Part shown: positions 1,115 through 57,604 of the stretch, one piece after another | How the letters are laid out: each line of letters starts with the position of its first letter | Position numbering within the stretch: the stretch's first letter is position 1 | Assembly: GCA_029932465.1 (NCBI GenBank) | Contig: JAOZQA010000002.1 | Span: 18,992-82,991 of the forward strand | Origin: Thermoplasmatota archaeon | GTDB taxonomy: Archaea; Thermoplasmatota; Penumbrarchaeia; Penumbrarchaeales; EX4484-36 | Reading direction: 5' to 3' | Length of the DNA: 64,000 nt | The notes under the pieces: generated by a model | Seen by the model: the letters and a program-made list of their open reading frames with translations, nothing else | Databases searched by the model: none | Told to the model about the DNA's origin: nothing | Program-made: the position numbers and the translations under genes

Positions 1115-1561
1115 GTGATGAAGATGGTCAGAGGCAGGGTTTTCACATGCATAGTCGCTGGTATTTCAATTATCCTCTCACTTGCTCTACTCTCAGGTTG
1201 GGCTTGTGCCGCAGAGGATGATAATGGCGAGAAAGAGGTTATAAAGAATGATAACGCGGAGCTATTTCTTTTTGTGATGCTTCTCTCCTTCGGTGTGGGG
1301 GCCATTATACTGGGGGCCTTCACCGCATATTTCGGGTCAGGAAAATCAAGGGTCTTCGGCGCACTCCTCACTGTCGCGGGTATCTTAGTCTACCTGAATT
1401 ACATCTACTTCAAGTTCATATCAAAGAGCAGCGACACACTTCTTGGCATAGTACACTGGAGCGAGTTCTCCTTCGTCAAGGTGCTGCTTGTAGTGGTTGG
1501 TTTCATCGTCGGCCTCATAATAGCCCTGGCCCTCTTCCTGGTGGGCATTATAAAATCCTGA
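1115..1561 (+). CDS. Small integral membrane protein (hypothetical)
   Basis: 148 aa; N-terminal hydrophobic segment and at least two further predicted TM helices; no recognisable motif. Confidence 0.4.
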   Translation: MMKMVRGRVFTCIVAGISIILSLALLSGWACAAEDDNGEKEVIKNDNAELFLFVMLLSFGVGAIILGAFTAYFGSGKSRVFGALLTVAGILVYLNYIYFKFISKSSDTLLGIVHWSEFSFVKVLLVVVGFIVGLIIALALFLVGIIKS

Positions 1562-2261
1562 CGTAGTATCTTAGCATCTTCTTTCTGAATATGGCTTCAA
1601 CAGGGCCCCCAAGTATGTAAAGAAAGATAAGATTGCTAGCTGCGTGTAGAGCGTCAAAGGGAAGGGACATTCCATAGACCAGGAGAACCGCTGAGAGTAT
1701 GGGTGGGTAGAAAATAAGCATTGAAAGGTTGGTTATCCATCCGTAGATGAAGGCAGAGATTATGGAGAAAGTGTAGAGGAAGAGGGGCTTGTTTTTAACC
1801 CTCGAGTAGAGGAAACCTGCGGAGTATCCCACTATGCCCCATCCGGCCATCATAAAGGGCGTATGTATGCCCTGGCCAAGGAACATGTTTGAGATCAGAG
1901 GCGTCATGATTCCAACGAAGCCCCCCATCTCAGGCCCGAATACAGCGCCTGCCATGATGATTATAAAGGTGGACGGCTGTACGGAGGGGAGGGGTGCAAA
2001 TAACACTCTCAGCCCAGAGGAAAGAGCGGAGAGAAGGGCAAGGAGTGCAACGTTCTGGGTGGTGAATCCTGACCTCTCAAGCTTATGAAGCGCCCCGACG
2101 GATGCTATAGAGACCAAGGCTGCGATCCAGTATATAGGGTTAATCTCTGAGTGAATTATGTCGGTGAGGGTGAGAAAGAAAAGGAATACTACTGCTAGAG
2201 ATGCTACGGAAAGAAGGCCAGAGACCACCCCTCCCCTAAACACCTTCTCCACCCCCATCAA
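1548..2261 (-). CDS. ECF transporter substrate-specific (S) component
   Basis: 237 aa, 5-6 TM helices; last gene of an S / fused A-A / T operon with overlapping stops and starts; substrate not identifiable from sequence. Confidence 0.5.
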   Translation of the reverse strand: MMGVEKVFRGGVVSGLLSVASLAVVFLFFLTLTDIIHSEINPIYWIAALVSIASVGALHKLERSGFTTQNVALLALLSALSSGLRVLFAPLPSVQPSTFIIIMAGAVFGPEMGGFVGIMTPLISNMFLGQGIHTPFMMAGWGIVGYSAGFLYSRVKNKPLFLYTFSIISAFIYGWITNLSMLIFYPPILSAVLLVYGMSLPFDALHAASNLIFLYILGGPVEAIFRKKMLRYYVRIL

Positions 2262-3756
2262 GAATTAGCACTTTATCCCCGAGAGAATCAAAGAGGTCAG
2301 TGTGCGTTGAAATTATGATAGTGGTGGTAGGAGATAGCTCTCCCAGCATCCGTTTCAGTGCTACGTATGATTTTCTGTCCATTCCCCGGGTGGGCTCATC
2401 TAAGAAGGTAATCTGTGGAAAGCCTATTAGGACGGATGCAATGGCAGCGCGCTGCCTCTGACCTGCGGACAGGTTGAAGGGGTCCTCCTTTTCTAGCCCT
2501 TCAAGATAGAGCGCCCGGATAAACTTTCTAGATGCAAAAGAGAATGGCTCGCTCCTCCTCCCCTTTGCCCAGGAGAGCCTCAGGTCCTCTATGAGAGTCT
2601 CACAGGTGAAGATGTCCATGGGGTTCTGCGGGAGGTAGCCCACCTTAAGGCCACTCCCACCTCTCCAACCACTCTCTCCAATCCAAGGGGCTTTAAGGAC
2701 ACCTCTCTGCGGTTTCACAAAACCTAGAAGGGTCCTGATGAGTGTTGTTTTCCCCGAGCCATTTCGACCTTTGATGAGGAACACCTCCCCCTCAAATATG
2801 GCGAAGGTAAGCCCCGTGAAGAGCTCCCGGTTCCCGCAGGAGACTTCAAGGGAGTGCACCTCTATAATGGGGCACCTCTTACGCACTTCATACCTCTCAC
2901 TTTTTCCTCTCTGCGGAACCTCTCTCCTTGAGCTTTTTCCGGACAGTCTGAGCCTACCACCTGGGTTTTCAGACCTTTTGAATTTAGTAGGGGAGGGGCT
3001 CCTCACTTCCAGTGGAGTCTCTGGGGTCCGAGACCAAGAGCGGACGTTATCCACACAGTGAACGGGTTCAGGAAGTGGCCCGATACGTCCTCCCTCCATT
3101 AAAAGAACTTTATTCGCCCTCTGAATCAGCTCCCAATATCCTTCGGGCGAGGGGGTGACGATCACAGCGGCCCCACCCTGACGCACCTTTTCAGTTAGAC
3201 ACCTTCGAAAAAGCTCCCTCCCCTCAGCATCAAGATGAGTCATGGGTTCATCCAGCAGATATAATTCAGAGGTGGATGCCTCAAGGTGGCTCAGAACCAG
3301 TCTCTGCTTCTCCCCCGCCGATAAGGTGGCGGTATGGGAGTTTGGGGAGATTTGGGGCAGCCACTTCCTGAGTGCTTTTTGGCCTAAAAGCTCCGCCTGG
3401 CGCAGTTTCGAGGATTCTTCAAGGTAAGGTACAGTGGCCTCTGTTATGGCCCGTCTGAAGATAATGTAATACTCCGGTTCTTGCGGCATGTAAAAGACCC
3501 TTCCCGGGACCTCATTTCTTTCCCTTCTTCTTTTCATGTTCTTCCCGAGCACCCTTACCTCTCCCGCTAGTGTCCCCCCGGTGAGGTAGGGCGAGATTCC
3601 GGAGAGCACCTTGAGAAGTGTGCTCTTTCCTGATCCAGAGCTGCCTATGATTAACACCAGCTCTCCACTTTCCACCTTGAGGTCAACCCCCCTCAGGACC
3701 TCGCCCTTTGCCATTGGATAGGTAAATTTAAGTCCTCTCGTCTTGACAAGGCTCAC
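2236..3756 (-). CDS. ecfA: ECF/ABC transporter ATPase, fused tandem EcfA-EcfA'
   Basis: 506 aa with two ABC ATPase modules: Walker A 'GSSGSGKST' and 'GRNGSGKTT', signature 'LSAGEKQR' and 'LSAGQRQR', Walker B 'LLDEP' and 'FLDEP'. Confidence 0.85.
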   Translation of the reverse strand: MSLVKTRGLKFTYPMAKGEVLRGVDLKVESGELVLIIGSSGSGKSTLLKVLSGISPYLTGGTLAGEVRVLGKNMKRRRERNEVPGRVFYMPQEPEYYIIFRRAITEATVPYLEESSKLRQAELLGQKALRKWLPQISPNSHTATLSAGEKQRLVLSHLEASTSELYLLDEPMTHLDAEGRELFRRCLTEKVRQGGAAVIVTPSPEGYWELIQRANKVLLMEGGRIGPLPEPVHCVDNVRSWSRTPETPLEVRSPSPTKFKRSENPGGRLRLSGKSSRREVPQRGKSERYEVRKRCPIIEVHSLEVSCGNRELFTGLTFAIFEGEVFLIKGRNGSGKTTLIRTLLGFVKPQRGVLKAPWIGESGWRGGSGLKVGYLPQNPMDIFTCETLIEDLRLSWAKGRRSEPFSFASRKFIRALYLEGLEKEDPFNLSAGQRQRAAIASVLIGFPQITFLDEPTRGMDRKSYVALKRMLGELSPTTTIIISTHTDLFDSLGDKVLILDGGGEGV

Positions 3757-4646
3757 CCCACCACCCCCTTCAGAAAATAGAGGGTATAGAGGATGTATAC
3801 AGCCCCCTGGAGCAGTCCAAAAGCCATTGAAGGAAGATGTGGGGAAACAAGAAGTGCGAGGACCTTTGGGAGGATCAGGACAATTACAGAGCCCGCTATT
3901 GCAAAGTACAGTGTGCCTCGGGGTGATCCCATCTTTGTCGAAGGGGGGACCTTTAATCGGAAAAGCCCTCTTGTCTCAAGGGACTCTGCCAAGATGTCGC
4001 TTCTTATGAAAGAGTCCCTAAGCAATGGAATGACTAGGGAGGCCCTGCTCCTGAAGGTCCGAAGGAAACCGGAGTCTTTTACCACCCCCCTCACCCTCTG
4101 AACTTCAAGAATGTTTTTGGCGTCCTCCTTCACCCGGGGGATGAGGTAGAAAGAGGATAGGACCATGAGCGGCAGTGCGGATGAGTGTCTTCTCAAAGTG
4201 AAGAAAAGGGCATCGCTGTCAGGCGTGAAGGTGAAAAGCCAGAAGAGGACCATAATGGAGGAAAGCTTCAAGGCGTTTTTGAGGGCGAATATGATTGCGG
4301 AGGAAGTAATATAAAGCGGTGGAAGGGGAGAGAGATCCAAAGCGAGGAGTGTACTTCCAGTGGGGGGGTAGAGAAGGACGTTGAAGAGAAAGACAATAGC
4401 GGAGAGCGGAAAGATGTATCTTAAGGCTTTGATAGTGCCTGTCCCCCTGCTGGGAGGTCTCGAGGATATCCAAAGGACCATCCCCACACTCCAGACGGAC
4501 ATAAATGTGAGGGCGGCAATGCTGGATGTGAGGAGAAGAACGATGGAGGAGAAGATGACGAGATAAGCTATGCTCTCCCACCTCAATATTCGCCTCTCTA
4601 GAGGTTCATATTGCGCCTTCTGAGTATATCCAGAGGATCTCGTCAC
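3753..4646 (-). CDS. ecfT: ECF transporter transmembrane (T) component, CbiQ/EcfT-like
   Basis: 297 aa polytopic membrane protein; position directly upstream of the fused ATPase with a 4-nt overlap. Confidence 0.6.
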   Translation of the reverse strand: MTRSSGYTQKAQYEPLERRILRWESIAYLVIFSSIVLLLTSSIAALTFMSVWSVGMVLWISSRPPSRGTGTIKALRYIFPLSAIVFLFNVLLYPPTGSTLLALDLSPLPPLYITSSAIIFALKNALKLSSIMVLFWLFTFTPDSDALFFTLRRHSSALPLMVLSSFYLIPRVKEDAKNILEVQRVRGVVKDSGFLRTFRSRASLVIPLLRDSFIRSDILAESLETRGLFRLKVPPSTKMGSPRGTLYFAIAGSVIVLILPKVLALLVSPHLPSMAFGLLQGAVYILYTLYFLKGVVG

Positions 4647-5040
4647 CGTCCTCCACCACCTTTCTGTCCGATGCCACCTCTCCGAAAACGTCGTTCACGT
4701 AGTAGACCCACCACTTGCTCCCCCCTCCTTCTACACCGGCGATCGCCTCCACGAACACCCCATATCTCTCTTTGTGATACTTCACAGTGAAATTGTACAT
4801 CTCTGAGGCTTTGAGAAGCAGTGAGAAGACCGTCTCACCCTCTTCAATCTCCACTTCCGTGAAGGTCCACACCCCACTACCCCCCACACCTCCCTGGGGG
4901 CTCTCACCATTGAAGTCGATTGTCAGTTCTACACTCCCTGGGCCACCACCCCCGCCGCCGCTAAAGCAACCTGAGAGGGCAGCAGTGAGAAAAGGCACGA
5001 TAAGGACTAGGAGGGGGGCGAGTCTACTCCTCAACCGCAC
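4606..5040 (-). CDS. DUF4430-like lipoprotein (transcobalamin-beta/BtuH-like fold candidate)
   Basis: 144 aa; signal peptide with lipobox-like 'LSGC'; Gly-rich linker; 'YGVFVEAIAGVEGGGSKWWVYYVNDVFGEVASDRKVVEDGDEILWIY' matches the DUF4430 pattern (yG.fV.sI.G...yW.y.VNg....ga....l.dGD.i.w.y). Confidence 0.55.
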   Translation of the reverse strand: MRLRSRLAPLLVLIVPFLTAALSGCFSGGGGGGPGSVELTIDFNGESPQGGVGGSGVWTFTEVEIEEGETVFSLLLKASEMYNFTVKYHKERYGVFVEAIAGVEGGGSKWWVYYVNDVFGEVASDRKVVEDGDEILWIYSEGAI

Positions 5041-6976
5041 CCCCCCAGGTATCGGTTCTTCTCATAAAGATGTATGCGGCTATGGCCGCGAAAAGTGCTA
5101 TCGGGATCGCAACGATCACGTAATAGCCGGGACCTAACCTGCCTCCCCCCTCCTCCCTCTCAACGGTCACCACCCACGTGTGGGAAAGCTCGACATCACC
5201 AAGTCTGACCATGGCAATTACATTGTGCTCCCCAGGGGGAAGGCTCACCTCAAGCGTTGCCCCCCCTCCGGCAACCTCTCCGTCCACGTACCAGGTGACC
5301 TCAACATCTTCTCCAAGTGCAGGCTCTAAAAGAGCGAAAGAGACCTCGTCCCCCACATACACATCCACGACATTTCTCCCCGGGGAGAAGACTATGTGGG
5401 GGAGGAGCTCCACAAAATGGAGATCCCCAGCATCTGTTGGGAGGTAGAGGCGGGATGTGTGCACAAGAGGGGTGGGGAATATCCAGTCGTTTGGTGTGGG
5501 CACATACGTGCCTAGGAGCTCCCCTTGGGAGGAATAGAAATAGAGGGTAGAGAGATTCCCCTCGCCTCCTGTATTGGTGACGAACACAACACCACCTCCG
5601 ACCGCAAGGGCAGAGGCGGTCACGGGCCCTTCAGCGGGAAGAGTCCTCACCTCCCCCGATGAGGCATCTACTAAATAAACGCCTCCGTCAAAACCCGCAG
5701 CGAGGGTCCATCTGCCATTCAGCTGAAATGCGTTGAAGGAGGAGGTCAGGGCGGTAGAGATGGTCTTCACCTTCTGGAGCTGGTGTGAGTTACCGTCGAT
5801 CCTGTATATCTCACTGATCTCCTCCCCAAAAGTTATGGAGAAATAGACAGCCCCCGGGCCAGTCACGAGGGGCGCTTTTATCGTCCCGTTTAAGCTCATC
5901 TCCCAGGCTACATCGCCGGTTGTGGTATTGACCGCGAAGATTTTTCCATCCCTTCCTCCCAAATATATCTCACCCTCGAGAAGTATGGGTGTGGAGAAAT
6001 AAAAAGTGGTATTGAGGTTCACTCTCCAGAGGATATCTCCATCGGGAGTTAGAGCCGTGAGGTTTCCATCGCCCCCGGCTAGATAAATGCATCTTTCGTC
6101 CGCTACAGGAGAGGAGGTCAGCCCCCAAGTGGAGTTATCCAACTTCAGCTTCTTGAACACCTCTCCTGTGGTGAGGTTTATAATGTAAAGGTTTCCATCG
6201 GTGGACGCTACATAAACCGACGAAGCCCTCACAAGGGGCGTGGAGAGCTCAAAACCTACGCCTCCCACTTCCCTCTCCCAGAGAATCTTTCCATCCCAGT
6301 CTAACAGAAAGAGGGAAGAGGGTCTCTCAAGTTTAAAGCTGGTATAGTTCATAACCCCGGAGGTGTACACCAGCAGGCCTTCTGGTGTGATTAGGGGAGA
6401 GGTGTCTATGGGCCCAGAGTCTAGGTGCGCCGTTCTTATCGGACGTATCTCCCAAACCCTCCAAGAGGGCCCTGGGGGATGAAGAACACCGCTGTAGGAG
6501 AGTACAGGAAGAGGGTATTCCGGCGTGGGATCAGGGGTCTCCCCGAAGGTGTGGCAGTAGAGGAAGGCAACAGCATCACCAGAGTCTACAGGGGTTGTAT
6601 CGGCCGATGTGGGGGTGTACTCCCACACACCACCTGAGGAGTTCCACTTGAGGACCGTCCAGAAATAGGAATAATCAGGGGGCGAGGAGACACCTCTTAT
6701 GGATTTGATATAGACTCCATAGGAGGAGTTCTCCCATTCCACCCTCCAACCTAGCCCCCCAGTGGCTTCAAGTAAGGCTTCGAAGGCGTTCTTAACACCT
6801 TTGGTCTCCACCCAGGCGAAGTCCGAGGGGGAGAAATAGATAAGGACGTCCACACCTTCCACACTTTGCGGAGTCTCGCCATCTGCTAGAGCGGATGGCA
6901 GAGTAGTAAGATGGAGAAGAAGAAACAGAACAACAGCGGACAAGATTACTTTTACAACAGCTCTCATACCGAACAC
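5024..6976 (-). CDS. Exported membrane-anchored protein: N-terminal DUF4430-like domain, PQQ/BamB-type beta-propeller repeats, Ig/PKD-like domain, C-terminal TM anchor
   Basis: 650 aa; signal peptide; N-terminal 'WRVEWENSSYGVYIKSIRGV...YFWTVLKWNSSGGVWEY...VDSGDAVAFLY' is DUF4430-like; repeated 'DG.L.A....G...W' propeller motifs; C-terminal 'YYVIVAIPIALFAAIAAYIFMRR' anchor. Confidence 0.5.
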   Translation of the reverse strand: MFGMRAVVKVILSAVVLFLLLHLTTLPSALADGETPQSVEGVDVLIYFSPSDFAWVETKGVKNAFEALLEATGGLGWRVEWENSSYGVYIKSIRGVSSPPDYSYFWTVLKWNSSGGVWEYTPTSADTTPVDSGDAVAFLYCHTFGETPDPTPEYPLPVLSYSGVLHPPGPSWRVWEIRPIRTAHLDSGPIDTSPLITPEGLLVYTSGVMNYTSFKLERPSSLFLLDWDGKILWEREVGGVGFELSTPLVRASSVYVASTDGNLYIINLTTGEVFKKLKLDNSTWGLTSSPVADERCIYLAGGDGNLTALTPDGDILWRVNLNTTFYFSTPILLEGEIYLGGRDGKIFAVNTTTGDVAWEMSLNGTIKAPLVTGPGAVYFSITFGEEISEIYRIDGNSHQLQKVKTISTALTSSFNAFQLNGRWTLAAGFDGGVYLVDASSGEVRTLPAEGPVTASALAVGGGVVFVTNTGGEGNLSTLYFYSSQGELLGTYVPTPNDWIFPTPLVHTSRLYLPTDAGDLHFVELLPHIVFSPGRNVVDVYVGDEVSFALLEPALGEDVEVTWYVDGEVAGGGATLEVSLPPGEHNVIAMVRLGDVELSHTWVVTVEREEGGGRLGPGYYVIVAIPIALFAAIAAYIFMRRTDTWGGAVEE

Positions 6977-7128
6977 CTTCCAATTAAAGCGTGCTTGAGC
7001 TGACTAAGGGTATGTTGATGTGCTACTTAATGGTTTCTGCGGGGTGAGAGGCCTTTTAGCTCCTTTCTTCCCAAAATTGGTTGAAGAGAGAAAAAGGGTT
7101 TAAATCCAACTTAACTTTCTTTATTAAC

Positions 7129-8538
7129 ATGAAAGGCAAGAACATCGTGATAGCCGGGGCCGGAGAAAGGGGGGCCTCCTTGGCCAAGATACTGATCGCA
7201 GAGGGGCACAACGTCACGATCATAGAACAGGAAGGCGAGGCAGCGGAGAGGGTCTCTGAGCTGGACGCCCTGGTGATCAGGGGAAATGCAGCCTCTCCCT
7301 CCACTCTTGAGAAAGCCTATGTTAAGAACGCTGACTACTTCATTGCAGTGACCGGTAGCGATGAGATAAATATAATCGCATGCAGTCTAGCAAAGAGCGA
7401 TAAGTGCAGGACAATGGCCCGAGTAAACTCCTATGATTACATCACTAGACCCGTCTCCACAGTTCAACTCAAGAAACTGGGGGTGGACATAGCCTTCTGC
7501 CCGGACCTCCTCACAGCCACGCACCTTGCTAATCTGATCACCACCACTAGCATGCTGAACACCTCTCAGCTTGCGAGAGGGAAAATTATGGTGGTTGATA
7601 CGACCATCAGGGAGGGGAGCAGAGCTAGAGGAAAGAGCATAAAGGACCTAAAGCTCCCCGGGGGCTGCAACGCCGTGGCCATTTTCAGAGGGGATGAGGT
7701 ATTAATTCCCCACGGCGAGACCCGGATTGAGGAGAACGACCGCATTCTCTTCATAGTAAAGAAGGATAAGGACATGGATGAGGTCCTGAGCTCATTGAGC
7801 GCATTGGTGGGGAAGCCCAGAAGGTACAGCGATGAACGGGGTGCTAGAAAAATAATGGTGGCTGGGGCATCAAGGATAGGGGTCCACCTCTGCAAACTCC
7901 TCGAGGAAGAGGACTTCACCGTGGTGCTCATTGAAGAAGACCCCGAGAAGTGTAGAAAGGCCTCAGAGGAGCTCAACAAGACCCTCATAATCAACGGCAG
8001 CTACACCGACAGGGAACTTCTTTTGGAGGAGGGAATAGAGTCTGCCGATGTCTTCTTAGCCCTCACAGAGAGGGAGGAGATCAACATTTTGACATCCATC
8101 ATGGCTAGACAGTACGGGGCACGCCACTCCATGGCGCTCGTTGATAGACCGGGGCTTAAAACGATACTTGAGGATGTAGGGATAGACGTCATAATATCCC
8201 AGAGGTGGGTGACCGTGGACGCCATAGTGAGACAGCTCCACAAAGAGGAGTTTGAGTCGCTGACCACTCTAGATCAGGCATCCACTCACATAGTGGAAGT
8301 GAAGGTGAAAAGCAGTTGTCCCTTCGCAGGGAGGAGGCTTGCGAAGATCAAGGACTTCAAATCTCAGAACGTAATAGTGGCGGCGATAAACAGAAAGGGA
8401 AATATAATCGTCCCCCGGGGGGAGGACACAATAGAGGTGGGAGATCGCCTCATCCTTTTTGCCAAGAGCAACTCACTCTCTTGGATCGCCAAGACCTTCG
8501 GTGTGAGGGAGGAGAAAAAGAGAGGAAGACTGCTTTAG
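7129..8538 (+). CDS. trkA: Trk potassium uptake system NAD-binding subunit TrkA
   Basis: Two Rossmann TrkA-N modules ('IVIAGAGERGASLAKIL', 'IMVAGASRIGVHLCKLL'), each followed by a TrkA-C domain; start placed at the internal ATG 'MKGKNIVIAG'. Confidence 0.8.
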   Translation: MKGKNIVIAGAGERGASLAKILIAEGHNVTIIEQEGEAAERVSELDALVIRGNAASPSTLEKAYVKNADYFIAVTGSDEINIIACSLAKSDKCRTMARVNSYDYITRPVSTVQLKKLGVDIAFCPDLLTATHLANLITTTSMLNTSQLARGKIMVVDTTIREGSRARGKSIKDLKLPGGCNAVAIFRGDEVLIPHGETRIEENDRILFIVKKDKDMDEVLSSLSALVGKPRRYSDERGARKIMVAGASRIGVHLCKLLEEEDFTVVLIEEDPEKCRKASEELNKTLIINGSYTDRELLLEEGIESADVFLALTEREEINILTSIMARQYGARHSMALVDRPGLKTILEDVGIDVIISQRWVTVDAIVRQLHKEEFESLTTLDQASTHIVEVKVKSSCPFAGRRLAKIKDFKSQNVIVAAINRKGNIIVPRGEDTIEVGDRLILFAKSNSLSWIAKTFGVREEKKRGRLL

Positions 8539-14350: not shown

Positions 14351-15394
14351 ATGAACGAACCTGTTCCTGTGGCCGAGGGTGATTGCTTGAGCCAGGCATT
14401 TGTTTTAAATCGGAAGGACCTGGGACAGCTTATTGAACGTCTGAAGAGGACCTATGAGAGGGTCTATCTCCCTGTAGGGGATGCTTTTAGGGAGGCCGGG
14501 AGCATTGAAGGAATCTCTTTCACAGGGGCTAGGGCCCTTTTCGGTCCCAAAAAGTACTTCTTCCCTCCCCGGGAGAGTCTCTTCGGATTCACAAAGGACG
14601 GGAATATAGAAGACCTCCTGAAGGAGGAGAAGGGGGCCGTTATAGGGGCAAGGGTGTGTGATCTCAAGGCCTTGGAAGTGCTGGACAAGTACTTCGGAGA
14701 GCTACCGGAACCCTTCTACCTCACCCGGAAGGAGGGGACCTTCGTTGCCGGAGCTACCTGCACCGAGCCGCATCAATCCTGTTTCTGCGTGCAGTTCGGG
14801 GGGCTTTCTACAGAGGGGCTCAAATATGACTTGTGGTTCACGGATTTCGGAGACGTGATACTTATGGAGACGGGGAGCGCGAGAGGGGAGGAAGTGGTCA
14901 AAGATTTAGACCTCCTCAATGCCCCCAAAGAGCTGCTTTACAGGAAAGAGAGGATCATAGAGAGGGTGGAGAGGGAGCAGGGATTCAGAAGGATTAACGA
15001 TAAGAAAATATTTGACTGGTTTTCGGAAGAAGTGACTCACGAGATCTGGGAGAGGCTGGCGGAGGAATGCTACGCCTGCGGGAAGTGCAATATGATCTGT
15101 CCTACGTGTCACTGCTTTGACGTGGTGGATATGACAGACCTTGAAGGAAGCGGGGAGCGGGTCAGAATCTGGGATGCATGCCACCTCTTCAGATATGGCC
15201 TTGTGGCCTCCGGTCACAACTTCCGGGGCGAGAGGCTTGCTAGAGCCCAGTACAGGATCTACGACAAGTTCTACTACCCGTATGAGAGATACGGCATCTT
15301 CGCCTGTGTTGGGTGCGGCAGGTGCTTTGAGGCCTGCAGCGCGGACATAGACCTACGAGATGTCCTTAAGGTAGCAGGGGGTGAGGGATCGTGA
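14351..15394 (+). CDS. hydB: Sulfhydrogenase beta subunit (Fe-S), HydB-like
   Basis: 347 aa; 'CYACGKCNMICPTCHCFD' and 'CVGCGRCFEAC' cluster motifs; first gene of the B-G-D-A order. Confidence 0.7.
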   Translation: MNEPVPVAEGDCLSQAFVLNRKDLGQLIERLKRTYERVYLPVGDAFREAGSIEGISFTGARALFGPKKYFFPPRESLFGFTKDGNIEDLLKEEKGAVIGARVCDLKALEVLDKYFGELPEPFYLTRKEGTFVAGATCTEPHQSCFCVQFGGLSTEGLKYDLWFTDFGDVILMETGSARGEEVVKDLDLLNAPKELLYRKERIIERVEREQGFRRINDKKIFDWFSEEVTHEIWERLAEECYACGKCNMICPTCHCFDVVDMTDLEGSGERVRIWDACHLFRYGLVASGHNFRGERLARAQYRIYDKFYYPYERYGIFACVGCGRCFEACSADIDLRDVLKVAGGEGS

Positions 15395-16230
15395 AAACGG
15401 GGAACATATACATCCCAAAGCCAGCCGTGATAGAGAAGGTTGAAGTGGAGGAGCCAGAGACCTGGACCTTCACCTTAAGCACACCCCTTGAACACACCCC
15501 GGGCCAGTTCGTTGAGATTTCCATTCCCGGCTACGGGGAGGCGCCTATCTCGATAGCCTCTCCCAGCGGCGAGAAGCTGATGCTCACTGTGAGGAGGACG
15601 GGCACCTTGACGGGTGCTCTGCACAGGAAGAAGGTGGGGGAGATGGTGGGCATAAGAGGACCCTTCGGCAGAGGCTGGCCCCATCAGGAGGCCCAGGGAG
15701 AGACCCTTCTTCTTGTAGCTGGAGGAATTGGTCTTGCTCCTGTGAGGCCCATCATTGAGGACGCATATAGGGGGCGCCTGAACTACGAGAGGCTCCTTCT
15801 TCTTTACGGTGCTAGGGAGCCGGCCCTTCTCCTGTACAAGAAAGACCTTGACCGTTGGGCAAAGAAGCTCGAGGTCTTCGTTACAGTGGACAGAAAGAAT
15901 GGGTGCGAGACGGCACCGAAGGTTTGGGACGGTAGGACTGGGGTTGTAACAGAGCTCTTCAAAGAAGTAGACTTCAGTCCTGGCAGAACGTGGGCCCTTG
16001 TCTGCGGCCCTCCCATTATGATGCACTTTGCCACCAAGGGCCTGATATCCAAGGGAGTCCCTCTGAACAGGATACATCTCTCCTTGGAGAGGCATATGAA
16101 GTGCGGCATGGGAATCTGCGGGCACTGCCAGATAGGGGGGAAGTATGTCTGCAAGGACGGACCTGTCTTCTCCGTCCATGAGGCCCTAAGTTGGAGAGAG
16201 ATACCGGACGAGCTGGAGGGGGTGGCCTGA
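15391..16230 (+). CDS. hydG: Sulfhydrogenase gamma subunit (FAD/NAD(P)-binding, 2Fe-2S; anaerobic sulfite reductase B-like), HydG-like
   Basis: 279 aa; FNR-like fold; C-terminal 'CGMGICGHCQIGGKYVCKDGP' [2Fe-2S] motif; ATGA overlap with hydB. Confidence 0.7.
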   Translation: MKTGNIYIPKPAVIEKVEVEEPETWTFTLSTPLEHTPGQFVEISIPGYGEAPISIASPSGEKLMLTVRRTGTLTGALHRKKVGEMVGIRGPFGRGWPHQEAQGETLLLVAGGIGLAPVRPIIEDAYRGRLNYERLLLLYGAREPALLLYKKDLDRWAKKLEVFVTVDRKNGCETAPKVWDGRTGVVTELFKEVDFSPGRTWALVCGPPIMMHFATKGLISKGVPLNRIHLSLERHMKCGMGICGHCQIGGKYVCKDGPVFSVHEALSWREIPDELEGVA

Positions 16231-16955
16231 TGGACATAGGGATATTCTCTTTAAGCGGCTGCAGCGGCTGTCAGATCGAGTTTTTAAACCTGGAGGAGAA
16301 GATACTGGAGGTCTTAAAGCACCTGGACATAAAGGAGGCCCAGATTCTCGTGAGTTTGGAGCACCCTGGAAATTTTGACATCTCCTTTGTGGAGGGCTCC
16401 CCTACAACCGTAGAAGAGATCGAAAAGCTCTACAGGATAAGGGAGAGGTCTAGCAAGGTCGTAGCTATGGGAGCCTGCGCCTGTTACGGGGGTGTTCAGT
16501 CTCTAATAGATGGGCAGAGGTACTCCGACGCCGTGAAAAGGCAGTACGGTGGGGTACTCCCGGTTGTGAGCCTGCCTCCGAAAGGAATAGACAACTATGT
16601 GGATGTTGATGCGAAACTCTACGGCTGTCCCTTTGAAAGGGATGAGCTGCTGAAGCTCATAAGTGACCTTGTCATGGGCAGGGAGTTCAGAGCGGTGGAC
16701 CATAGCGTCTGTACTGAGTGCGTCCTTTTCGAAAACGGCTGTCTCCTGGACATGGGGGAGCCCTGTATGGGTCCTGTGACCCGGGGGGGCTGCAGCGCCC
16801 GTTGCCCCAGCAGAGGCATGTTCTGCACGGGATGCAGAGGCGAGTATGAGGACGAGAATGTGGAGGCGCACATTGAAGACCTTCTGGAGAAGGGATATAG
16901 CATGGTGGAGATCGAAGGCATTTACAACAAATATTACAGGAGGCTGAGAGCTTGA
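16230..16955 (+). CDS. hydD: NiFe hydrogenase small (delta) subunit
   Basis: 'MDIGIFSLSGCSGCQIEF' proximal-cluster motif typical of NiFe small subunits; TGATG overlap with hydG. Confidence 0.75.
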   Translation: MDIGIFSLSGCSGCQIEFLNLEEKILEVLKHLDIKEAQILVSLEHPGNFDISFVEGSPTTVEEIEKLYRIRERSSKVVAMGACACYGGVQSLIDGQRYSDAVKRQYGGVLPVVSLPPKGIDNYVDVDAKLYGCPFERDELLKLISDLVMGREFRAVDHSVCTECVLFENGCLLDMGEPCMGPVTRGGCSARCPSRGMFCTGCRGEYEDENVEAHIEDLLEKGYSMVEIEGIYNKYYRRLRA

Positions 16956-18229
16956 AGGTTGAGGTGCCGCTTATCACAAGGGTGGAGGGGCATGGACACG
17001 TAGAGATCATAGTTGACGGTGAGTCCTTAAAAGAAGTGAGAATGGGAATCCACGAGGGGCCCAGGTTTTTCGAGTCTGTCCTCGTTGGTAGAAGGTGGTG
17101 GGAGATCCCAGAGATGTCCGCGAGAATCTGCGGGATATGCACTGTCATACATGCCCTGGCGGCTGCAAAGGCTGTGGAGAAGGCCGCAGGCTTCTCCCCA
17201 GATGAGACACTGCACAACCTCAGGTTTCTACTTGCGGGGTCTGCCCACATCCAGAGCCACATACTTCACCTCTACTTCCTAGCCCTCCCCGATTACTTCC
17301 GCGTCCCTTCCGCCCTCCATCTTCCGGAGAAGGTGAAGACCCACCTTAAAGAAGTCTTCAGGCTGAAGAGGGTGACCAACGACCTCACAGAGTTGATAGG
17401 GGGGAGGAGGGTCCATCCCGTCACTGTCCAGCCCGGGAGACTCACGCAGGACGTCACCAGTGAGATGCTGAAGAGCTACCTGAAGAGGATGGAGGATATA
17501 ATGGACGGTCTCAGGTTTACTGCGGAGTTTTTCACGGACCTTGAGCACCCCTATCAGAAGGTGCCAGGGCACCAGGTGGCGCTTAAGGAGGCAGGGAGAT
17601 TACCCCTCCTGAAGGGGGAGATAGCATATCTTGAGGGGAAGAGCTTCCCCGAGGAGAGATACATGGATCTTATCGAGGAGAGGGTGCTTCCTCCCAACAC
17701 CACCAAGAGGTCACATTTTCTGGGAGAGCCCTTCATGGTGGGGGCTCTACCCAGGGTGAACATAGGGAGAGATCACCTGAGGGATGAGGTGAAGGATATC
17801 GCCCCGAAGCTACCCTCAGACAACCTCTTCCATAACAACTTGGCACAGGCCCTTGAGTGTTATCACTTCGGGCTGGAGATGGTTGAGGTACTCAAAGATA
17901 TGGTTGAGAATCATAAAGAGTACGTCTCAAGAAGGGTTGAGCTGACCTTCCTGAAGGGGGCGGAGGGGATAGGGGCGGTCGAGGCACCCCGAGGACTCCT
18001 TATCCACCATTACGTTTTCGGCAGGGATGGCAGGGTTGAAAGGGCCAATGTGATCACGCCCACAGCCATGAACTTTGAGCACATGGAGGTCTCCCTGAAC
18101 CACTATCTACCGCCCCTTATGCCCCAGAGCGAGGATGCTCTCAAGTGGGAGAGTGAAAGGCTGATCAGGGCCTACGACCCATGCATCTCCTGCAGTGCCC
18201 ACGTAACCCGCATTGGGGAGTTGGGCTGA
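16952..18229 (+). CDS. hydA: NiFe hydrogenase large (alpha) subunit
   Basis: N-terminal 'RICGICTVIHALAA' (RxCGxC) and C-terminal 'DPCISCSAH' (DPCxxC) Ni-binding motifs; 4-nt overlap with hydD. Confidence 0.85.
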   Translation: MKVEVPLITRVEGHGHVEIIVDGESLKEVRMGIHEGPRFFESVLVGRRWWEIPEMSARICGICTVIHALAAAKAVEKAAGFSPDETLHNLRFLLAGSAHIQSHILHLYFLALPDYFRVPSALHLPEKVKTHLKEVFRLKRVTNDLTELIGGRRVHPVTVQPGRLTQDVTSEMLKSYLKRMEDIMDGLRFTAEFFTDLEHPYQKVPGHQVALKEAGRLPLLKGEIAYLEGKSFPEERYMDLIEERVLPPNTTKRSHFLGEPFMVGALPRVNIGRDHLRDEVKDIAPKLPSDNLFHNNLAQALECYHFGLEMVEVLKDMVENHKEYVSRRVELTFLKGAEGIGAVEAPRGLLIHHYVFGRDGRVERANVITPTAMNFEHMEVSLNHYLPPLMPQSEDALKWESERLIRAYDPCISCSAHVTRIGELG

Positions 18230-24104: not shown

Positions 24105-24661
24105 CCCTTACAGAGCCTTTCAGCCTTCTCTTTGATCTTTCTGGCGAGTGTGGGATTCATCCCCTCTACCCTGAGGAGGTCTCTAATCTCCGCCTCGGCG
24201 ACCTCTTCAAGCGTCCGGTAGCCGGCCGCATGGAGGGACTGAGCCCTCACCTCATCAAGTCCAAGGTACGCTCTGAAGAGGGATATCGCATCATCCCCTC
24301 CCGCCATTCTGTCAACATGCTTTGCGCTGATCACCCCTGCTTCTATCCTCCTCCCGTAGCTCTCTGAGAAGCCCTCCACCAAGGCGGCCTCCCCGTAGAG
24401 GAGCACTACACTCTGTTCGTTCACACTGACGCTTTTCAGTCCTATAAGCGCATTACCGCCCTTCTCCTGGACCTGTCTCAGGAGCTCCTCCATCGCCTCG
24501 TCAAAAAGCTCCTCCAGAAGAGGACCAGAGGGGGGCAGTCCAGGGACCTCCCCGGGGAGCTCTATTGCCTTCCTTACAATCCCAAGACGCCTCTTTATCT
24601 TCACCCCGGGAGGTGAATCAGAAAGGGTGATGAGCACCCTCTCACCTCCCTGCAGCCGCAA
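24101..24661 (-). CDS. YbjQ/UPF0145-domain protein fused to tandem helix-hairpin-helix motifs
   Basis: 186 aa; N-terminal YbjQ-like region ('RVLITLSDSPPGVKIKRRLGIVRKAI...GGNALIGLK'); C-terminal 'LGLDEVRAQSLHAAGYRTLEEV...LLRVEGMNPTLARKI' HhH pair. Confidence 0.5.
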   Translation of the reverse strand: MRLQGGERVLITLSDSPPGVKIKRRLGIVRKAIELPGEVPGLPPSGPLLEELFDEAMEELLRQVQEKGGNALIGLKSVSVNEQSVVLLYGEAALVEGFSESYGRRIEAGVISAKHVDRMAGGDDAISLFRAYLGLDEVRAQSLHAAGYRTLEEVAEAEIRDLLRVEGMNPTLARKIKEKAERLCKG

Positions 24662-27600
24662 TCCTTCTTTTCAGGTAAAGCCTCCTTATGACCTCAGCGG
24701 TGAGGAGACCTACGCCCGTTATAAAAAGGGCGTCCAGGAGGAGGGAGCCCTTCACCCGGTCAGGATGACTTTCGGCACCGAAGGGGGTGTGGCCGCCGAT
24801 GTTCACGGGGCTGCGGAGCGCCTCGGGCTGGCCCCAGGCGTGCATTGGCGAGAAGACCTTCAGGTCCGGATCCCCGTAGAAGACCAGGTTCTCGAAGATG
24901 TCCCACCACCAGGCGTCCAGCAGATACTCTATGCCCACGTGCGCTATCCCCCTCTCATATGCCTCACCCACGGTATAGTTGTAGTATATGTCCTTGACGA
25001 AGGTTTCCATGGCAAAGGAGGAGTACCAAGATGTGAGCCAGGGGTCTATAACCTGGAAGACGGAGCCGTGCCTGACGAGGGAGAGATGAAGGTAGGTATT
25101 AGCTATGAGGCAGCTGCCGGCCGAGAAGCCCATGGAGTGAATGTTATCAAGGGCTTCATCTATCTGTAGGCCGCGGTTGCTGTACTCGGTCTGGCGCTGC
25201 TGCAGGAGTGCTATGACCACTCCATCGTGTGTCTCAGGGATTATTCCGGCATCAGTCACAGGGCCGAACCCGGGCTGCACATCGAGACCTATATGCTTGT
25301 TCATTGTGGCCACGTCCGGGTCATCGGTAGCACCCCTGAGCCTCTGAAGGTCGCCGCTTACAGGAATCCCGTTCTCCTCATAACCCCTCCACGGGTCTCT
25401 TTCCTCGTTGGCGTCCGGGTTCCACCACCCCACTACTCCCGACTCAGTATGTCCTCCGTGCATGACCTCAAGCCACATGATGACCCCACGATTCAAGTTC
25501 TCCACTGTCCTCTCAAAGGTTGTTGTCTGAACATGGTCATACCCTATCTTCTCCAGGTAATAGGGGACCATCTCGGAGGTGTCTATGTCCGGCCAGACGC
25601 CATTGGGGTCTATTGGGTCATCTGAGGGGGTCTCCCCGGGGACTATCCCGGTCCTTGTTGTGTACTTGCACCCCCAGTACTCGCTCCCCCTCTCGTTGAA
25701 CTTGTACTGATAGGATACCCAGGTCTCCTGCACAGCATACCTAGTCTGAACCTCTCTCTCCTTCTCGACGATCCTGAGCACCCCTCCCACCCTGGTAGAG
25801 GAGGAACCCTGCCACCTCATCCCGTCATGCTCATCCAGGGCTGGGTTCACGGCAGGGTTAGCAAAAATGATCTGGGGGTAGAAGATGGAGCGGGAGATCC
25901 AGGCAGCGGCATCCACTGGAGAGCCCATGATTCTTCCAGCCTGGGCCGCCCCAACCAAGGCCCTGTCCCAGGAGGTGCCTATGTCGAATTGGTCCGCTAC
26001 GGTTATTATGCTCTCCTTCACCCCTTTTATTCCTCCTATCTCAGCTCCCATTTGCATGAGGAAGCTGTAGATTGCCTTTCCCTCAAGGACCATACAGCCC
26101 ACCGAGGGCGGGAGCCTGCTGGGGTAGGCCTTGAGCCAGAAGTTGTTGTGCCACGCCTGAGCCTGGGAGAGCCTTCGATGGACGTCTGTTATGAAGACGG
26201 GGCTGCCGTGGTGGGCAGCGGCTAGTGTGGCGGGGCCCACGAAGTATGCCCCGGGGAACTCCCCCTTAGGATTCTCCCTCCTCGCTGCAACGTACCAGTA
26301 GGACCAGGGGTCTACAGTAGTGAAGACTACATCGCCGGTGGGTTTCCCGTCGGTGCCGGCCCTGGAGATGATCTCACGATAGATATCCACGTAGGAGGTT
26401 ATCCTCTTAACCTTGATCTCCTTCTGCAGAAGCCCCCTCGCCCTGTCTATCCCCTTGAAAAGGCCCTCCCCAGCGTGTCCACCCAGGTCCACCACGTATA
26501 CCTTCTCCACGCCCAGCAGGTTAAGGGCATCTTTGACCTCACCCGGTAGCCTGCCATAAGGGACGTAGAGAAGAGGAGCGTTAAGAAGGGATGCCAGAAC
26601 CGCCCCATTGGTAGCCGAGGCAAAGGAGTCGCCCTCCCTCGGGTCTTTCACCTGCCTGAAAGAGTAGGAGAGCTTGAATTCGGTGGAGGAGCCTTCAAGG
26701 TTGACCACAGCCACCCTGTAGCGGCCCATGCCCAGGCTCTTCACTTCAAGAACCTGACGTCTGGACTGAGTAGAGTCCATCGCAGTTGTCACCTCAGCCC
26801 CGTTCTCATCCAGAAGGATTATTCCCAAGCGCGCCGAGGGGTCATCCCAGCTCACCTCAAAAGTGGCGTCCCTACTGTAGAACGGCACCTCATCGGGGAT
26901 GTCTATCTCCACCCCGGGGTAGAGTGTATAGTCTATTCTATAGTTCACCTCAGCGCTCCAAGGCTGTTCAGGATTCACCCTCTCCAAAATGCGGGGATTT
27001 CTCTCGAAGTAGTCTGTGAGGGCCTTCTGGTACTCATAGCTCTCGGTGGGCATGTAGGTGACGGCGAACTTCCACTCTCCGCTGTGGTAAACGTAGGAGG
27101 CGACGTGCTCCGAGGCGCCGGTTAGGACGTTCCATTCCTCAGAGGCGGCGACCTCTCCAAGCTGCATGTCGTAGAGCTGAAGGTCTGGATCCTTCCCCCG
27201 GGCGAGGAGCTCCCCAAGTTGCGTCTGGCTCCATGTCATAACGGCGTCTATGTACTTGTACCCCTCCCCAACTGTGAAGGGGTGCTCGTTGGGGTCCACT
27301 GGGGAGGGCATTTTGCTCCCTTCAACGCTGCCTTTTTCGGGACTCGCGGAGGGTGTGACCCCCTCAAGCTCCCCGGATATCTCCCTATCCGGCTGGGGTG
27401 GAGAGGGGTCTATCACCGCTATTACTGCTACTCGGGAATACTTCCAGCCATCCTTTGCCAGTGCTGCGGAGACCTCCCAGGGGCCCTCCCCCTCAATGGT
27501 GTTCACCTCCTCCGCCTTCCACTCTCCCCCAATCTGTGCGGGGGGAGTACTGAAACCCAAGAGATTGATTCTCTTCAAGGAGCCCCCGTTAACCGTGAGG

Positions 27601-27989
27601 ACATCCTCCATCAGGTACTTCACAGCGGGGTAGGAGTTGAGCGTCTTCTCCTCGTCGGATGTTGTCTCCCGGGGGGGAGTGTAGAAGAGAACGGGCGAGG
27701 AGACGATTTTATTGTCCTCCCGGCTGTAGAAGGTAGTGTAGGGGACAGCGGCGATGTAGTAGTAGTCGTCAAGAGCCCCCTCGGGGTCGTAGTTCACAAG
27801 AGTGGCAGAGCTCACCGGGACCACTCTCAGAGTGGAGACACCCTCAAATCCCGGGCTGGAAAGTCTGTCGGACTCCCTGCTGGAGGCGGAGGTGGAAAGC
27901 AGCGGAGGGAGGATTATCAAAGCCGCAATCAGAGTCATCAAAAGAAGTCTTCTCGGTCTCCCGCTGAGGACCTGCTTCATAATCATCAC
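24642..27989 (-). CDS. Large exported, C-terminally anchored protein with a putative transglutaminase-like/papain-like Cys-His-Asp core
   Basis: 1115 aa; Sec signal ('RRLLLMTLIAALIILPPLL'); C-terminal TM 'LFITGVGLLTAEVI'; candidate triad context 'GFSAGSCLIANTYLHLSLVRHG' ... 'AHVGIEY' ... 'FYGDPD'. Confidence 0.45.
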   Translation of the reverse strand: MMIMKQVLSGRPRRLLLMTLIAALIILPPLLSTSASSRESDRLSSPGFEGVSTLRVVPVSSATLVNYDPEGALDDYYYIAAVPYTTFYSREDNKIVSSPVLFYTPPRETTSDEEKTLNSYPAVKYLMEDVLTVNGGSLKRINLLGFSTPPAQIGGEWKAEEVNTIEGEGPWEVSAALAKDGWKYSRVAVIAVIDPSPPQPDREISGELEGVTPSASPEKGSVEGSKMPSPVDPNEHPFTVGEGYKYIDAVMTWSQTQLGELLARGKDPDLQLYDMQLGEVAASEEWNVLTGASEHVASYVYHSGEWKFAVTYMPTESYEYQKALTDYFERNPRILERVNPEQPWSAEVNYRIDYTLYPGVEIDIPDEVPFYSRDATFEVSWDDPSARLGIILLDENGAEVTTAMDSTQSRRQVLEVKSLGMGRYRVAVVNLEGSSTEFKLSYSFRQVKDPREGDSFASATNGAVLASLLNAPLLYVPYGRLPGEVKDALNLLGVEKVYVVDLGGHAGEGLFKGIDRARGLLQKEIKVKRITSYVDIYREIISRAGTDGKPTGDVVFTTVDPWSYWYVAARRENPKGEFPGAYFVGPATLAAAHHGSPVFITDVHRRLSQAQAWHNNFWLKAYPSRLPPSVGCMVLEGKAIYSFLMQMGAEIGGIKGVKESIITVADQFDIGTSWDRALVGAAQAGRIMGSPVDAAAWISRSIFYPQIIFANPAVNPALDEHDGMRWQGSSSTRVGGVLRIVEKEREVQTRYAVQETWVSYQYKFNERGSEYWGCKYTTRTGIVPGETPSDDPIDPNGVWPDIDTSEMVPYYLEKIGYDHVQTTTFERTVENLNRGVIMWLEVMHGGHTESGVVGWWNPDANEERDPWRGYEENGIPVSGDLQRLRGATDDPDVATMNKHIGLDVQPGFGPVTDAGIIPETHDGVVIALLQQRQTEYSNRGLQIDEALDNIHSMGFSAGSCLIANTYLHLSLVRHGSVFQVIDPWLTSWYSSFAMETFVKDIYYNYTVGEAYERGIAHVGIEYLLDAWWWDIFENLVFYGDPDLKVFSPMHAWGQPEALRSPVNIGGHTPFGAESHPDRVKGSLLLDALFITGVGLLTAEVIRRLYLKRRIAAAGR

Positions 27990-54873: not shown

Positions 54874-54982
54874 GGCGCAGAGGGGGGGATTTGAACCCCC
54901 GAGGAGCAGAAGCTCCACGAGCTTTCTGGACGAGCCAGGATGTTCTCCAGGCTCGCGCCTTACCGGGCTTAGCTACCTCTGC
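54874..54982 (-). tRNA. tRNA-Ser (anticodon GGA inferred), class II with long variable arm and a ~21-nt intron in the anticodon loop
   Basis: 7-bp acceptor stem GCAGAGG/CCTCTGC, discriminator G, T-arm GGGGG-TTCAAAT-CCCCC, variable stem-loop GGAGC-TTCT-GCTCC, anticodon stem CGAGC/GCTCG enclosing 'CTGGAG' plus an insert whose 'TCCAG' can pair with the loop (BHB-like). Confidence 0.7.
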
Positions 54983-55778: not shown

Positions 55779-56801
55779 TCAGCTCTCCTTTATCTTCCTC
55801 AACCTCTCCGTGAGCGCTGGGAGAACCTCTCTTAAGTCCCCAACAATGCCGTAGTGGGCTATAGAGAATATGGGTGCGTCCGGGTCCCTGTTTATGGCCA
55901 CTATCACCTTAGAGTTCTCCATACCTGCCCTGTGCTGAATGGATCCTGAAATTCCGCAAGCTATATAGAGCTTGGGGGAGACGCTCTTTCCCGTCTGGCC
56001 TACCTGTCTGTCCTGGGGTATCCAGCCCTTCTCCACAGCCACCCTGGAGCCCGCAACAACTCCTCCTAAGACCTCTGCTAGCTCCTCAAGTAGTTTGAAG
56101 TTCTCCTTCTTACCTACACCCCTCCCCCCACTCACGATCACATCGGCTTCCTCTAGGCTGGCACCAGTATCCACCTCGTGAACCACGGACAGAACGCGCT
56201 GGAATATATCCTCGGGAGAGAGAGGTACTTCAAGTCTCTCCACCACACCACTCCTATCAGGAAATCTCTCGCCCACCGGCATCACACCGGGCCGCACGGA
56301 GGCCATCTGTGGCCTGTGATTGGGTGTGTATATTGTAGCCATAACGTTTCCCCCGAAGGCGGGGCGGGTCTGCAGCAGTAGGCGGCTTTCGGGGTCTATA
56401 GAAAGCTCAGTACAATCAGCGGTAATCCCCGTCTGAAGCCTCTGGGCTACACGGGGGGCTAGATCTCTCCCAAAGAGGGTGGCCCCGTAGAGAACTACCG
56501 CAGGGAGGTACCTTCTCACCGCCTCACAGACGGCCCTCGCGTAGACTCCGGTAGTGTAGTGTCTGTACTCTTCCCCCTCCACCAGAATGACCCTGTCCGC
56601 ACCGTACTCAATAAGCTCCTTAGAGAACCTCTCAAGATCCTGCCCAAGAAGGAGCACCATAAGCTCCTCGCCGAGCTGGTCCGCAAGCTCTCTCCCCTTG
56701 CACGTAAGTTGTAGGGTCACCTTCTGAAGCTTTCCCTCTCTGATCTCTCCAACAACCATAACTCCATGGTATTTCTCAAGCGGAGGCTCATTCTCTTTCA
56801 T
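55779..56801 (-). CDS. etfA: Electron transfer flavoprotein alpha subunit
   Basis: 'YIACGISGSIQHRAGMENSKVIVAINRDPDAPIF' canonical EtfA FAD-binding region. Confidence 0.85.
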   Translation of the reverse strand: MKENEPPLEKYHGVMVVGEIREGKLQKVTLQLTCKGRELADQLGEELMVLLLGQDLERFSKELIEYGADRVILVEGEEYRHYTTGVYARAVCEAVRRYLPAVVLYGATLFGRDLAPRVAQRLQTGITADCTELSIDPESRLLLQTRPAFGGNVMATIYTPNHRPQMASVRPGVMPVGERFPDRSGVVERLEVPLSPEDIFQRVLSVVHEVDTGASLEEADVIVSGGRGVGKKENFKLLEELAEVLGGVVAGSRVAVEKGWIPQDRQVGQTGKSVSPKLYIACGISGSIQHRAGMENSKVIVAINRDPDAPIFSIAHYGIVGDLREVLPALTERLRKIKES

Positions 56802-56804
56802 TTC

Positions 56805-57599: not shown

Positions 57600-57604
57600 C
57601 TCTC

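Follow-up and report, generated by a model that had tools for sequence, protein, structure and literature searches.

The 64,000-nucleotide (nt) stretch of archaeal DNA analysed here (the window; positions 18,992 to 82,991 of contig JAOZQA010000002.1, assembly GCA_029932465.1, from an uncultured Thermoplasmatota archaeon) carries a five-gene operon that probably encodes a dedicated, group I energy-coupling factor (ECF) importer of the CbrT type for cobamides or cobinamide, together with two surface-anchored capture proteins that are part of the same transcription unit. ECF transporters are commonly characterized as importers that can do without extracytoplasmic binding proteins. The five open reading frames (ORFs) all lie on the minus strand at the positions given by an earlier, sequence-only reading of the window (the first-pass annotation), and successive genes overlap by 17, 41, 4 and 26 nt in the order 650-amino-acid (aa) propeller protein, 144-aa lipoprotein, EcfT, fused ATPase and S component. 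Because the successive ORFs overlap, they form a single translationally coupled unit, and the last of these overlaps places the S-component gene in the same operon as its own module. The promoter presumably lies in the short region that separates the operon from a divergent trkA gene. The true start of the 650-aa ORF is probably the ATG at 6967 (MRAVV...), with GGTG 7 nt upstream, rather than the GTG at 6976. The NCBI names for the cassette proteins are generic only.

The S component points to B12 as the likely cargo of this operon. The 237-aa protein matches two Pfam families (PF12822, ECF_trnsprt, 46.1 bits against a cutoff of 30.7; PF07155, ECF-ribofla_trS, 33.7 bits), and a family profile (A3) built from 34 homologues aligns over its full length with PDB chain 6FNP_A at E 1.8e-28; the runner-up S component for this profile, 4hzu_S, reached E 0.0034, and no others were detected. 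Searched alone, the window protein again found 6FNP_A as its sole S-component match (E 6.5e-9). Structure 6FNP is ECF-CbrT of Lactobacillus delbrueckii, for which binding and transport of both cobalamin and cobinamide have been shown experimentally (PMC5997447). By homology the 237-aa protein therefore belongs to the CbrT family, which settles the family check that the first-pass annotation had proposed, and the predicted substrates of the window transporter are cobalamin and cobinamide. Its N-terminus (within residues 1-60) is extended by ~55 aa that include two hydrophobic segments; such an extension is common among homologues that have dedicated modules and is lacking in the 182-aa CbrT of L. 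delbrueckii.

The remainder of the transporter core conforms to this assignment. The 297-aa protein belongs to the CbiQ/EcfT family (PF02361, 47.1 bits), and its alignment to chains 4hzu_T and 4huq_T keeps both Arg-Gly coupling motifs (QRVRGV and ETRGL, versus QRARGV and EARGY in 4hzu_T). The 506-aa protein contains two ATP-binding cassette (ABC) stretches (PF00005, ABC_tran, E 2.4e-43) and matches TIGR04520 and TIGR04521 (ECF_ATPase_1 and ECF_ATPase_2) at E 4e-47 and 8e-46, respectively, both under the equivalog cutoffs. Every testable feature of a group I module is found here, and the core is a dedicated ECF module of the CbrT family.

The smaller of the two accessory proteins is a homologue of the beta domain of transcobalamin. 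PF14478 (DUF4430) matches the 144-aa protein at E 3.9e-14 (53.3 bits; cutoff 23.8) over positions 1-71 of the 72 in the profile. A lipobox, LSGC (Cys25), and a Gly-rich tether precede the transcobalamin-beta-like domain (residues 33-144), and throughout the family the lipobox is conserved as [LF][SA]GC and followed by such a tether, which agrees with the description of this protein in the first-pass annotation as a DUF4430 lipoprotein. In the AlphaFold2 (AF2) model the core has a predicted local distance difference test score (pLDDT) of ~85, and the 19 top Foldseek matches (E <= 0.001) are without exception either 3u7z, the crystal structure of DUF4430, or beta domains of transcobalamin, intrinsic factor and haptocorrin, each at probability 1.0; ubiquitin-like folds follow at E>0.02. 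The DUF4430 family profile also matches the beta domains of haptocorrin, intrinsic factor and transcobalamin by sequence (4kki, E 3.7e-5), and PDB entry 5np4 is, by its title, the isolated transcobalamin beta domain with cyanocobalamin bound. A single-sequence homology search with the 144-aa protein returned one near-identical match only. In the first-pass annotation DUF4430 was described as a transcobalamin-beta-like fold and equated with that of Bacteroides BtuH. The former statement stands; the equation with BtuH fails, as the B12 domain of BtuH is reported to have no known structural homologues, with DUF4465 corresponding to BtuJ (PMC8941943, PMC13616437), and BtuH is not among the 50 listed Foldseek PDB matches of the 144-aa model.

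The larger accessory protein combines a divergent relative of the same domain with a propeller. Its AF2 model (pLDDT 78.3) has six regions, in the order signal/transmembrane (TM) helix, DUF4430-like domain, disordered linker, eight-bladed propeller, immunoglobulin (Ig)-like sandwich and C-terminal TM anchor. Pfam recognizes PQQ-type propeller models in it (PQQ_2, 65.3 bits) and no DUF4430 family; PF14478 found no match at E<=10 when the N-terminus was scanned alone, and none in the N-domains of seven collinear orthologues. Homology is nevertheless supported by several comparisons below the reach of Pfam. The N-terminus aligns with its 144-aa paralogue across the whole domain in BLASTP (E 4e-6); hhalign, aligning the profile of the N-domain family to that of DUF4430, gives a probability of 98.6% (E 9.5e-16, 98 columns); phmmer connects the window N-domain directly with P0178, a protein of four PF14478 repeats; and residues 39-141 of the AF2 model show the same order of strands and helices as the 144-aa model. 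The same N-domain opens the propeller proteins of orthologous loci, where it is also matched by a custom hidden Markov model (HMM), and the DUF4430 core motifs YGxF...I.G, W and GD..W.Y are kept in it in every propeller-type cassette. Thus, of the two DUF4430 signatures claimed in the first-pass annotation, one is recognized by Pfam and the other, visible to BLASTP, hhalign and AF2, is better called DUF4430-like.

The propeller resembles Cake8 most closely (Foldseek TMt 0.88), followed by BamB, YxaL and tetrathionate hydrolase. A BtuG-like propeller was considered and rejected, as the best matches are eight-bladed and BtuG is not in the top 50; of the structural comparisons that the first-pass annotation had suggested, only that with transcobalamin, for the 144-aa model, gave a positive result. 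The Ig-like region has weak Cadherin-like and BiPBP_C matches, and orthologues have PKD or CARDB domains at this place. When the 650-aa protein was used as query in an exhaustive search, very large generic proteins with several propellers dominated the result (30,419 matches at E<=1e-3, with about nine representatives that have the N-domain); the search yielded the closest orthologue, P0091 (647 aa, 65% identity), six more distant collinear N-domain-propeller representatives and two proteins with an internal N-domain.

Genomic context shows that putative capture proteins are a regular companion of this transporter. The contigs that encode homologues of the S component were identified (at least 597 relatives genome-wide), 86 loci were annotated with custom HMMs, and the 77 species-level loci with an adjacent EcfT gene and enough upstream sequence were counted. 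A DUF4430 gene lies within 700 nt upstream of EcfT in 63 of the 77 and within 8 kb in 71, so that members of this CbrT subfamily normally have a DUF4430 gene next to them. The first-pass annotation had regarded a dedicated ECF module with its own binders as unusual; that view does not survive this count, group I modules being ordinary and the L. sakei operon discussed below providing a precedent. Bacterial relatives keep the order DUF4430-T-AA'-S, often with a large SLH surface protein upstream that joins a prenyltransferase-like alpha-toroid to a DUF4430 domain, which is the alpha+beta layout of transcobalamin. An alpha-toroid is present in 43 of the loci counted and a propeller in five (four archaeal loci and one from Mageeibacillus, L084), and the two never occur in the same locus. 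Within the window cassette there is no Prenyltrans or SQHop_cyclase match, and our custom TOROID HMM had no match in the window or in any propeller-type locus. The full order propeller protein-DUF4430-CbiQ-fused ABC-S recurs in L003, L005, L007 and L057 (two Methanomassiliicoccales genomes and two other archaeal assemblies), each time with different flanking genes. Because the five-gene order recurs amid unrelated neighbours, it is not a product of chance, and the conservation that the first-pass annotation had suggested looking for is present. Cassettes were seen in Bacillota, Actinomycetota, Chloroflexota and several archaeal orders, and a neighbor-joining (NJ) tree of S components places the window protein together with those of the remaining archaeal cassettes of the propeller type, indicative of co-inheritance.

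Two further arrangements were encountered in this survey. In L040 (4553-5431) and L035 (5055-5843), which are Thermoplasmata and Thermoleophilia loci, the DUF4430 protein encoded beside EcfT continues into a conserved C-terminal extension ('FPEPFLHGYDG...') that is also found in P0090 and corresponds to no Pfam family; such a protein would be a third accessory-protein type. The Lentilactobacillus parakefiri locus L018 (3-8549) has two inverted copies of T-AA'-S and no DUF4430 gene nearby.

The distribution of propellers and toroids bears on whether the 650-aa protein takes part in capture at all. ECF-CbrT might import corrinoids while this protein serves as a generic envelope or S-layer scaffold that positions the DUF4430 lipoprotein, its N-domain having lost ligand binding. 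PQQ-type propellers are very common in surface proteins, as the size of the search result above illustrates, this one is of a generic BamB/YxaL type with no BtuG likeness among its top 50 matches, and its N-domain has diverged beyond recognition by PF14478 in all orthologues tested; moreover, in a Methanofastidiosum locus described below a DUF4430 domain is fused to an S-layer-like domain instead. We nevertheless consider a scaffold quite improbable, as the N-domain and its core motifs are conserved in every propeller-type cassette, the lack in these cassettes of the alpha-toroid that is so frequent elsewhere suggests substitution rather than decoration, and in Bacteroides the BtuGH fusion of a B12-binding domain to a propeller is able to bind B12 via both domains.

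The substrate is best indicated by the regulation and neighbours of homologous cassettes. Of the 36 bacterial loci scanned, 20 have a sense-strand cobalamin riboswitch (RF00174, up to 123 bits) directly in front of the first gene of the cassette. The hosts of these loci are Bacillota (Bacilli and Clostridia) and Actinomycetota (Thermoleophilia and Coriobacteriia), and riboswitch-positive loci occur in almost every bacterial clade of the S-component tree. Among them is L084 of Mageeibacillus (2415-8537), in which the gene behind the riboswitch encodes 617 aa, a weak DUF4430-like domain joined to a PQQ propeller, and is followed by DUF4430-T-AA'-S; this sole bacterial propeller-type cassette found is the bacterial twin of the archaeal layout. 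In the archaeal Methanofastidiosum locus L012 (4138-14128), T-AA'-S is followed without gaps by genes for a CobD-like aminotransferase, CbiB, CbiZ, CobS and a CobY-like nucleotidyltransferase, and a convergent CobT gene completes the archaeal set for cobinamide salvage and nucleotide-loop assembly; a divergent gene encodes a 335-aa protein in which the DUF4430 domain is joined to an S-layer-like domain, and next to it lies the gene for an S-layer-like protein of 975 aa. The Pfam families downstream of 60 cassettes are mostly unrelated, and the salvage genes of L012 alone were informative. Together with the CbrT-type S component and the fold of the lipoprotein, these riboswitches and salvage genes support the inference of the first-pass annotation of a capture and uptake system for a corrinoid or other tetrapyrrole, which it had offered with the substrate unproven.

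In three loci, additional cobalamin riboswitches head other operons a few kb downstream of the cassette (L071, 12064-12261; L032, 9838-10038; L061, 12396-13163), and these loci may be B12-related gene neighbourhoods.

Heme is the main rival substrate, because the bacterial form of the system in L. sakei has been linked to heme uptake: heme or another non-corrin tetrapyrrole would be the cargo, scavenged by the transcobalamin-like surface proteins and translocated by the CbrT-like S component. Deletion of lsa1836-1840 in L. sakei decreased both 57Fe-hemin accumulation and the signal of a heme sensor, and complementation restored both (10.1101/864751). Such a cargo would also be consistent with several bacterial loci, all sampled Lactobacillaceae included, that are without a B12 riboswitch, and with a window that is itself without B12-specific context. 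Yet the ligand-binding evidence in L. sakei is docking only (10.1101/864751), the sole biochemically characterised homologue of the S component, CbrT, was shown to have cobalamin and cobinamide as ligands and cargo (PMC5997447), cassettes preceded by a cobalamin riboswitch are found in nearly all bacterial clades of the S-component tree, the archaeal L012 cassette sits among cobinamide-salvage genes, and no heme-related families are found among the 25 commonest Pfam families of downstream genes. On balance, we regard heme as an unlikely cargo and favor import of cobamides or cobinamide.

Several observations in addition to the L. sakei phenotype weigh against corrinoid import by this operon. 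No RF00174 match was found in the whole window at the gathering threshold, or at 6700-7400 at E<=10, so that the B12 riboswitch that the first-pass annotation had suggested might lie around 6977-7128 did not materialize; RF00174 is likewise absent from all seven archaeal loci scanned (the window and six others), and because the archaeal clade is without riboswitches, the S-component tree is unable to settle the substrate. Loci sampled from Lactobacillaceae, B. cereus and Dehalococcoidia also lack a cobalamin riboswitch. No B12-dependent enzymes or cob genes, which the first-pass annotation had proposed as a check, are encoded among the 30 other ORFs of the window that were scanned, although 64 kb is too little to judge auxotrophy. 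Because the window has neither riboswitch nor B12 genes, we infer the substrate in this organism from homologues, through identities of ~35-41% and the context of the related loci. The two AF2 models were built on shallow alignments of 5 and 9 sequences because a concatenated-domain query (A4) aimed at both accessory families retrieved three small DUF4430 proteins only. Finally, the hand-off of ligand from the binders to the S component is a step that we infer in its entirety.

With these points in mind, we propose that both tethered DUF4430-type domains would bind corrinoids outside the membrane, the ligand perhaps being sandwiched between the two domains or held against the propeller face, and that the propeller face or second domain might take the place of the alpha-toroid that partners the beta domain in bacteria and in mammalian transcobalamin. 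By raising the local concentration of corrinoid, the tethered domains could pass the ligand to a high-affinity S component, which would then topple against EcfT, with ATP hydrolysis by the fused EcfA-A' resetting the cycle. A more specific evolutionary proposal, which we advance tentatively and consider somewhat doubtful, is that in one archaeal lineage the alpha-toroid half of an ancestral transcobalamin-like clamp was replaced by a second, Pfam-invisible DUF4430 domain carried on an eight-bladed propeller, so that the corrinoid would sit in a clamp formed by two beta-type domains of two different membrane-tethered proteins, or by one such domain and the face of the propeller. If this were true, the operon would represent a counterpart of Bacteroides BtuGH that evolved independently, and extracytoplasmic binders would be a functional requirement for an ECF transporter.

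Comparison with known systems clarifies what is new here. The S component is homologous to CbrT of L. delbrueckii over the full length of the latter, and both transporters use the same EcfT and EcfA/A' machinery (PMC5997447). However, the L. delbrueckii protein is a group II S component that works with a shared, general ECF module, and no DUF4430 partner has been described for it, whereas the window operon has a dedicated module with fused ATPases, the extended S component, two co-transcribed extracytoplasmic proteins and an archaeal host. Closer in gene content is the L. sakei lsa1836-1840 operon, which encodes an S component, fused AA', T, and transcobalamin-beta-like and transcobalamin-alpha-like proteins (10.1101/864751). 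Both operons comprise five genes, including a DUF4430/transcobalamin-beta-like protein, and in both extracytoplasmic scavengers would feed an ECF transporter; the toroid-bearing loci of our survey have an architecture equivalent to that of L. sakei. The differences are that the beta-like protein is paired with an alpha-toroid in L. sakei and with a DUF4430-like-propeller-Ig fusion in the archaeal cassette, and that the experimental link in L. sakei is to heme, not B12.

Mammalian transcobalamin, intrinsic factor and haptocorrin have a beta domain homologous, by profile and fold, to the 144-aa protein and the N-domain of the 650-aa protein, but these carriers are soluble, consist of an alpha and a beta domain and enter cells through receptor endocytosis; the window proteins are beta-like only, membrane-tethered and coupled to an ABC transporter. 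The Bacteroides proteins BtuG, BtuH and BtuGH (PMC8941943, PMC13616437) resemble the proposed archaeal system in being surface-tethered lipoproteins that take cobamides ahead of a transporter, and the B12-binding domain N-terminal to a propeller in BtuGH and the PKD/Ig stalk of BtuH2 parallel the DUF4430-like-propeller-Ig layout. Nevertheless, these proteins are not homologous: BtuH has a distinct fold, BtuG is seven-bladed in contrast to the eight-bladed window propeller, and the transporter that the Bacteroides proteins supply is a TonB-dependent one in the outer membrane rather than one of the ECF type. ECF-CbrT and the L. sakei combination of an ECF transporter with transcobalamin-like proteins are thus already published; the archaeal host, a second DUF4430-like domain missed by Pfam, and a propeller replacing the alpha-toroid are new, and a literature search found no paper describing the archaeal propeller-type variant.

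The features of the operon are collected in Table 1. The rest of the window encodes a TrkAH potassium system, translation and RNA-modification enzymes, a hydrogenase, an electron transfer flavoprotein (ETF) and giant surface proteins. A 148-aa hydrophobic ORF on the plus strand (1115-1561) runs convergently towards the S-component gene and shares 14 nt with the 3' end of that gene; no Pfam family matches this ORF, and the near-identical contigs L001 and L002 keep it at 145 aa. Farther away are a four-gene cluster for a sulfhydrogenase-like NiFe hydrogenase and genes for ETF alpha/beta and an acyl-CoA dehydrogenase (14351-18229; 55779-58747), as well as three giant predicted surface proteins of 1115, 1274 and 1632 aa (24642-27989; 39924-43748; 58995-63893), the first of which has no Pfam match. 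The one tRNA of the window, a 107-nt gene at 54876-54982 on the minus strand (Rfam, 45.6 bits), was missed by ARAGORN and is presumably an intron-containing archaeal tRNA.

Table 1. Positions of the operon's genes, of the domains of the 650-aa protein and of the adjoining intergenic region within the window.
Feature	Coordinates	Strand	Evidence
650-aa type-I surface protein	5024..6976	-	ORF; Pfam PQQ_2; AF2 model; start-codon context
Divergent DUF4430-like (transcobalamin-beta-like) domain, residues ~39-141	6554..6862	-	BLASTP; hhalign; custom HMM; phmmer
Eight-bladed PQQ/BamB/YxaL-type propeller, residues ~176-525	5402..6451	-	Pfam; Foldseek
Ig-like sandwich (residues ~529-606) and C-terminal TM anchor (616-639)	5060..5392	-	AF2 secondary structure; weak Pfam matches
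144-aa DUF4430 lipoprotein	4606..5040	-	PF14478; AF2 model; Foldseek; family profile
EcfT (CbiQ-family) transmembrane coupling subunit, 297 aa	3753..4646	-	PF02361; alignment to EcfT chains
Fused EcfA-EcfA' ATPase, 506 aa, two ABC domains	2236..3756	-	PF00005 (twice); TIGR04520/TIGR04521
CbrT-family S component, 237 aa, ~55-aa N-terminal extension	1548..2261	-	PF12822; PF07155; 6FNP_A match
Intergenic region, ~104 nt, between operon and divergent trkA	6977..7080	.	Sequence read; Rfam scans

Because ECF-CbrT and the L. sakei operon have been published and association with DUF4430 is the rule in this subfamily, the window operon is a variant, in an archaeal host, of a bacterial system that is widespread and has already been described in part. 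Our survey indicates that dedicated CbrT-type importers are almost always accompanied by transcobalamin-beta-like surface proteins, and it connects the mammalian B12 carriers, through their beta domain, with an uptake module of prokaryotes while extending ECF-CbrT to the archaea. A 2026 review described competition for scarce cobamides in cells without an outer membrane as "entirely uncharacterized", and the arrangement proposed here offers a testable model of how such cells might compete. The propeller-fusion variant provides a compact system for asking whether the binders are accessory or essential, and it bears on the question of B12 versus heme that arose from the L. sakei study.

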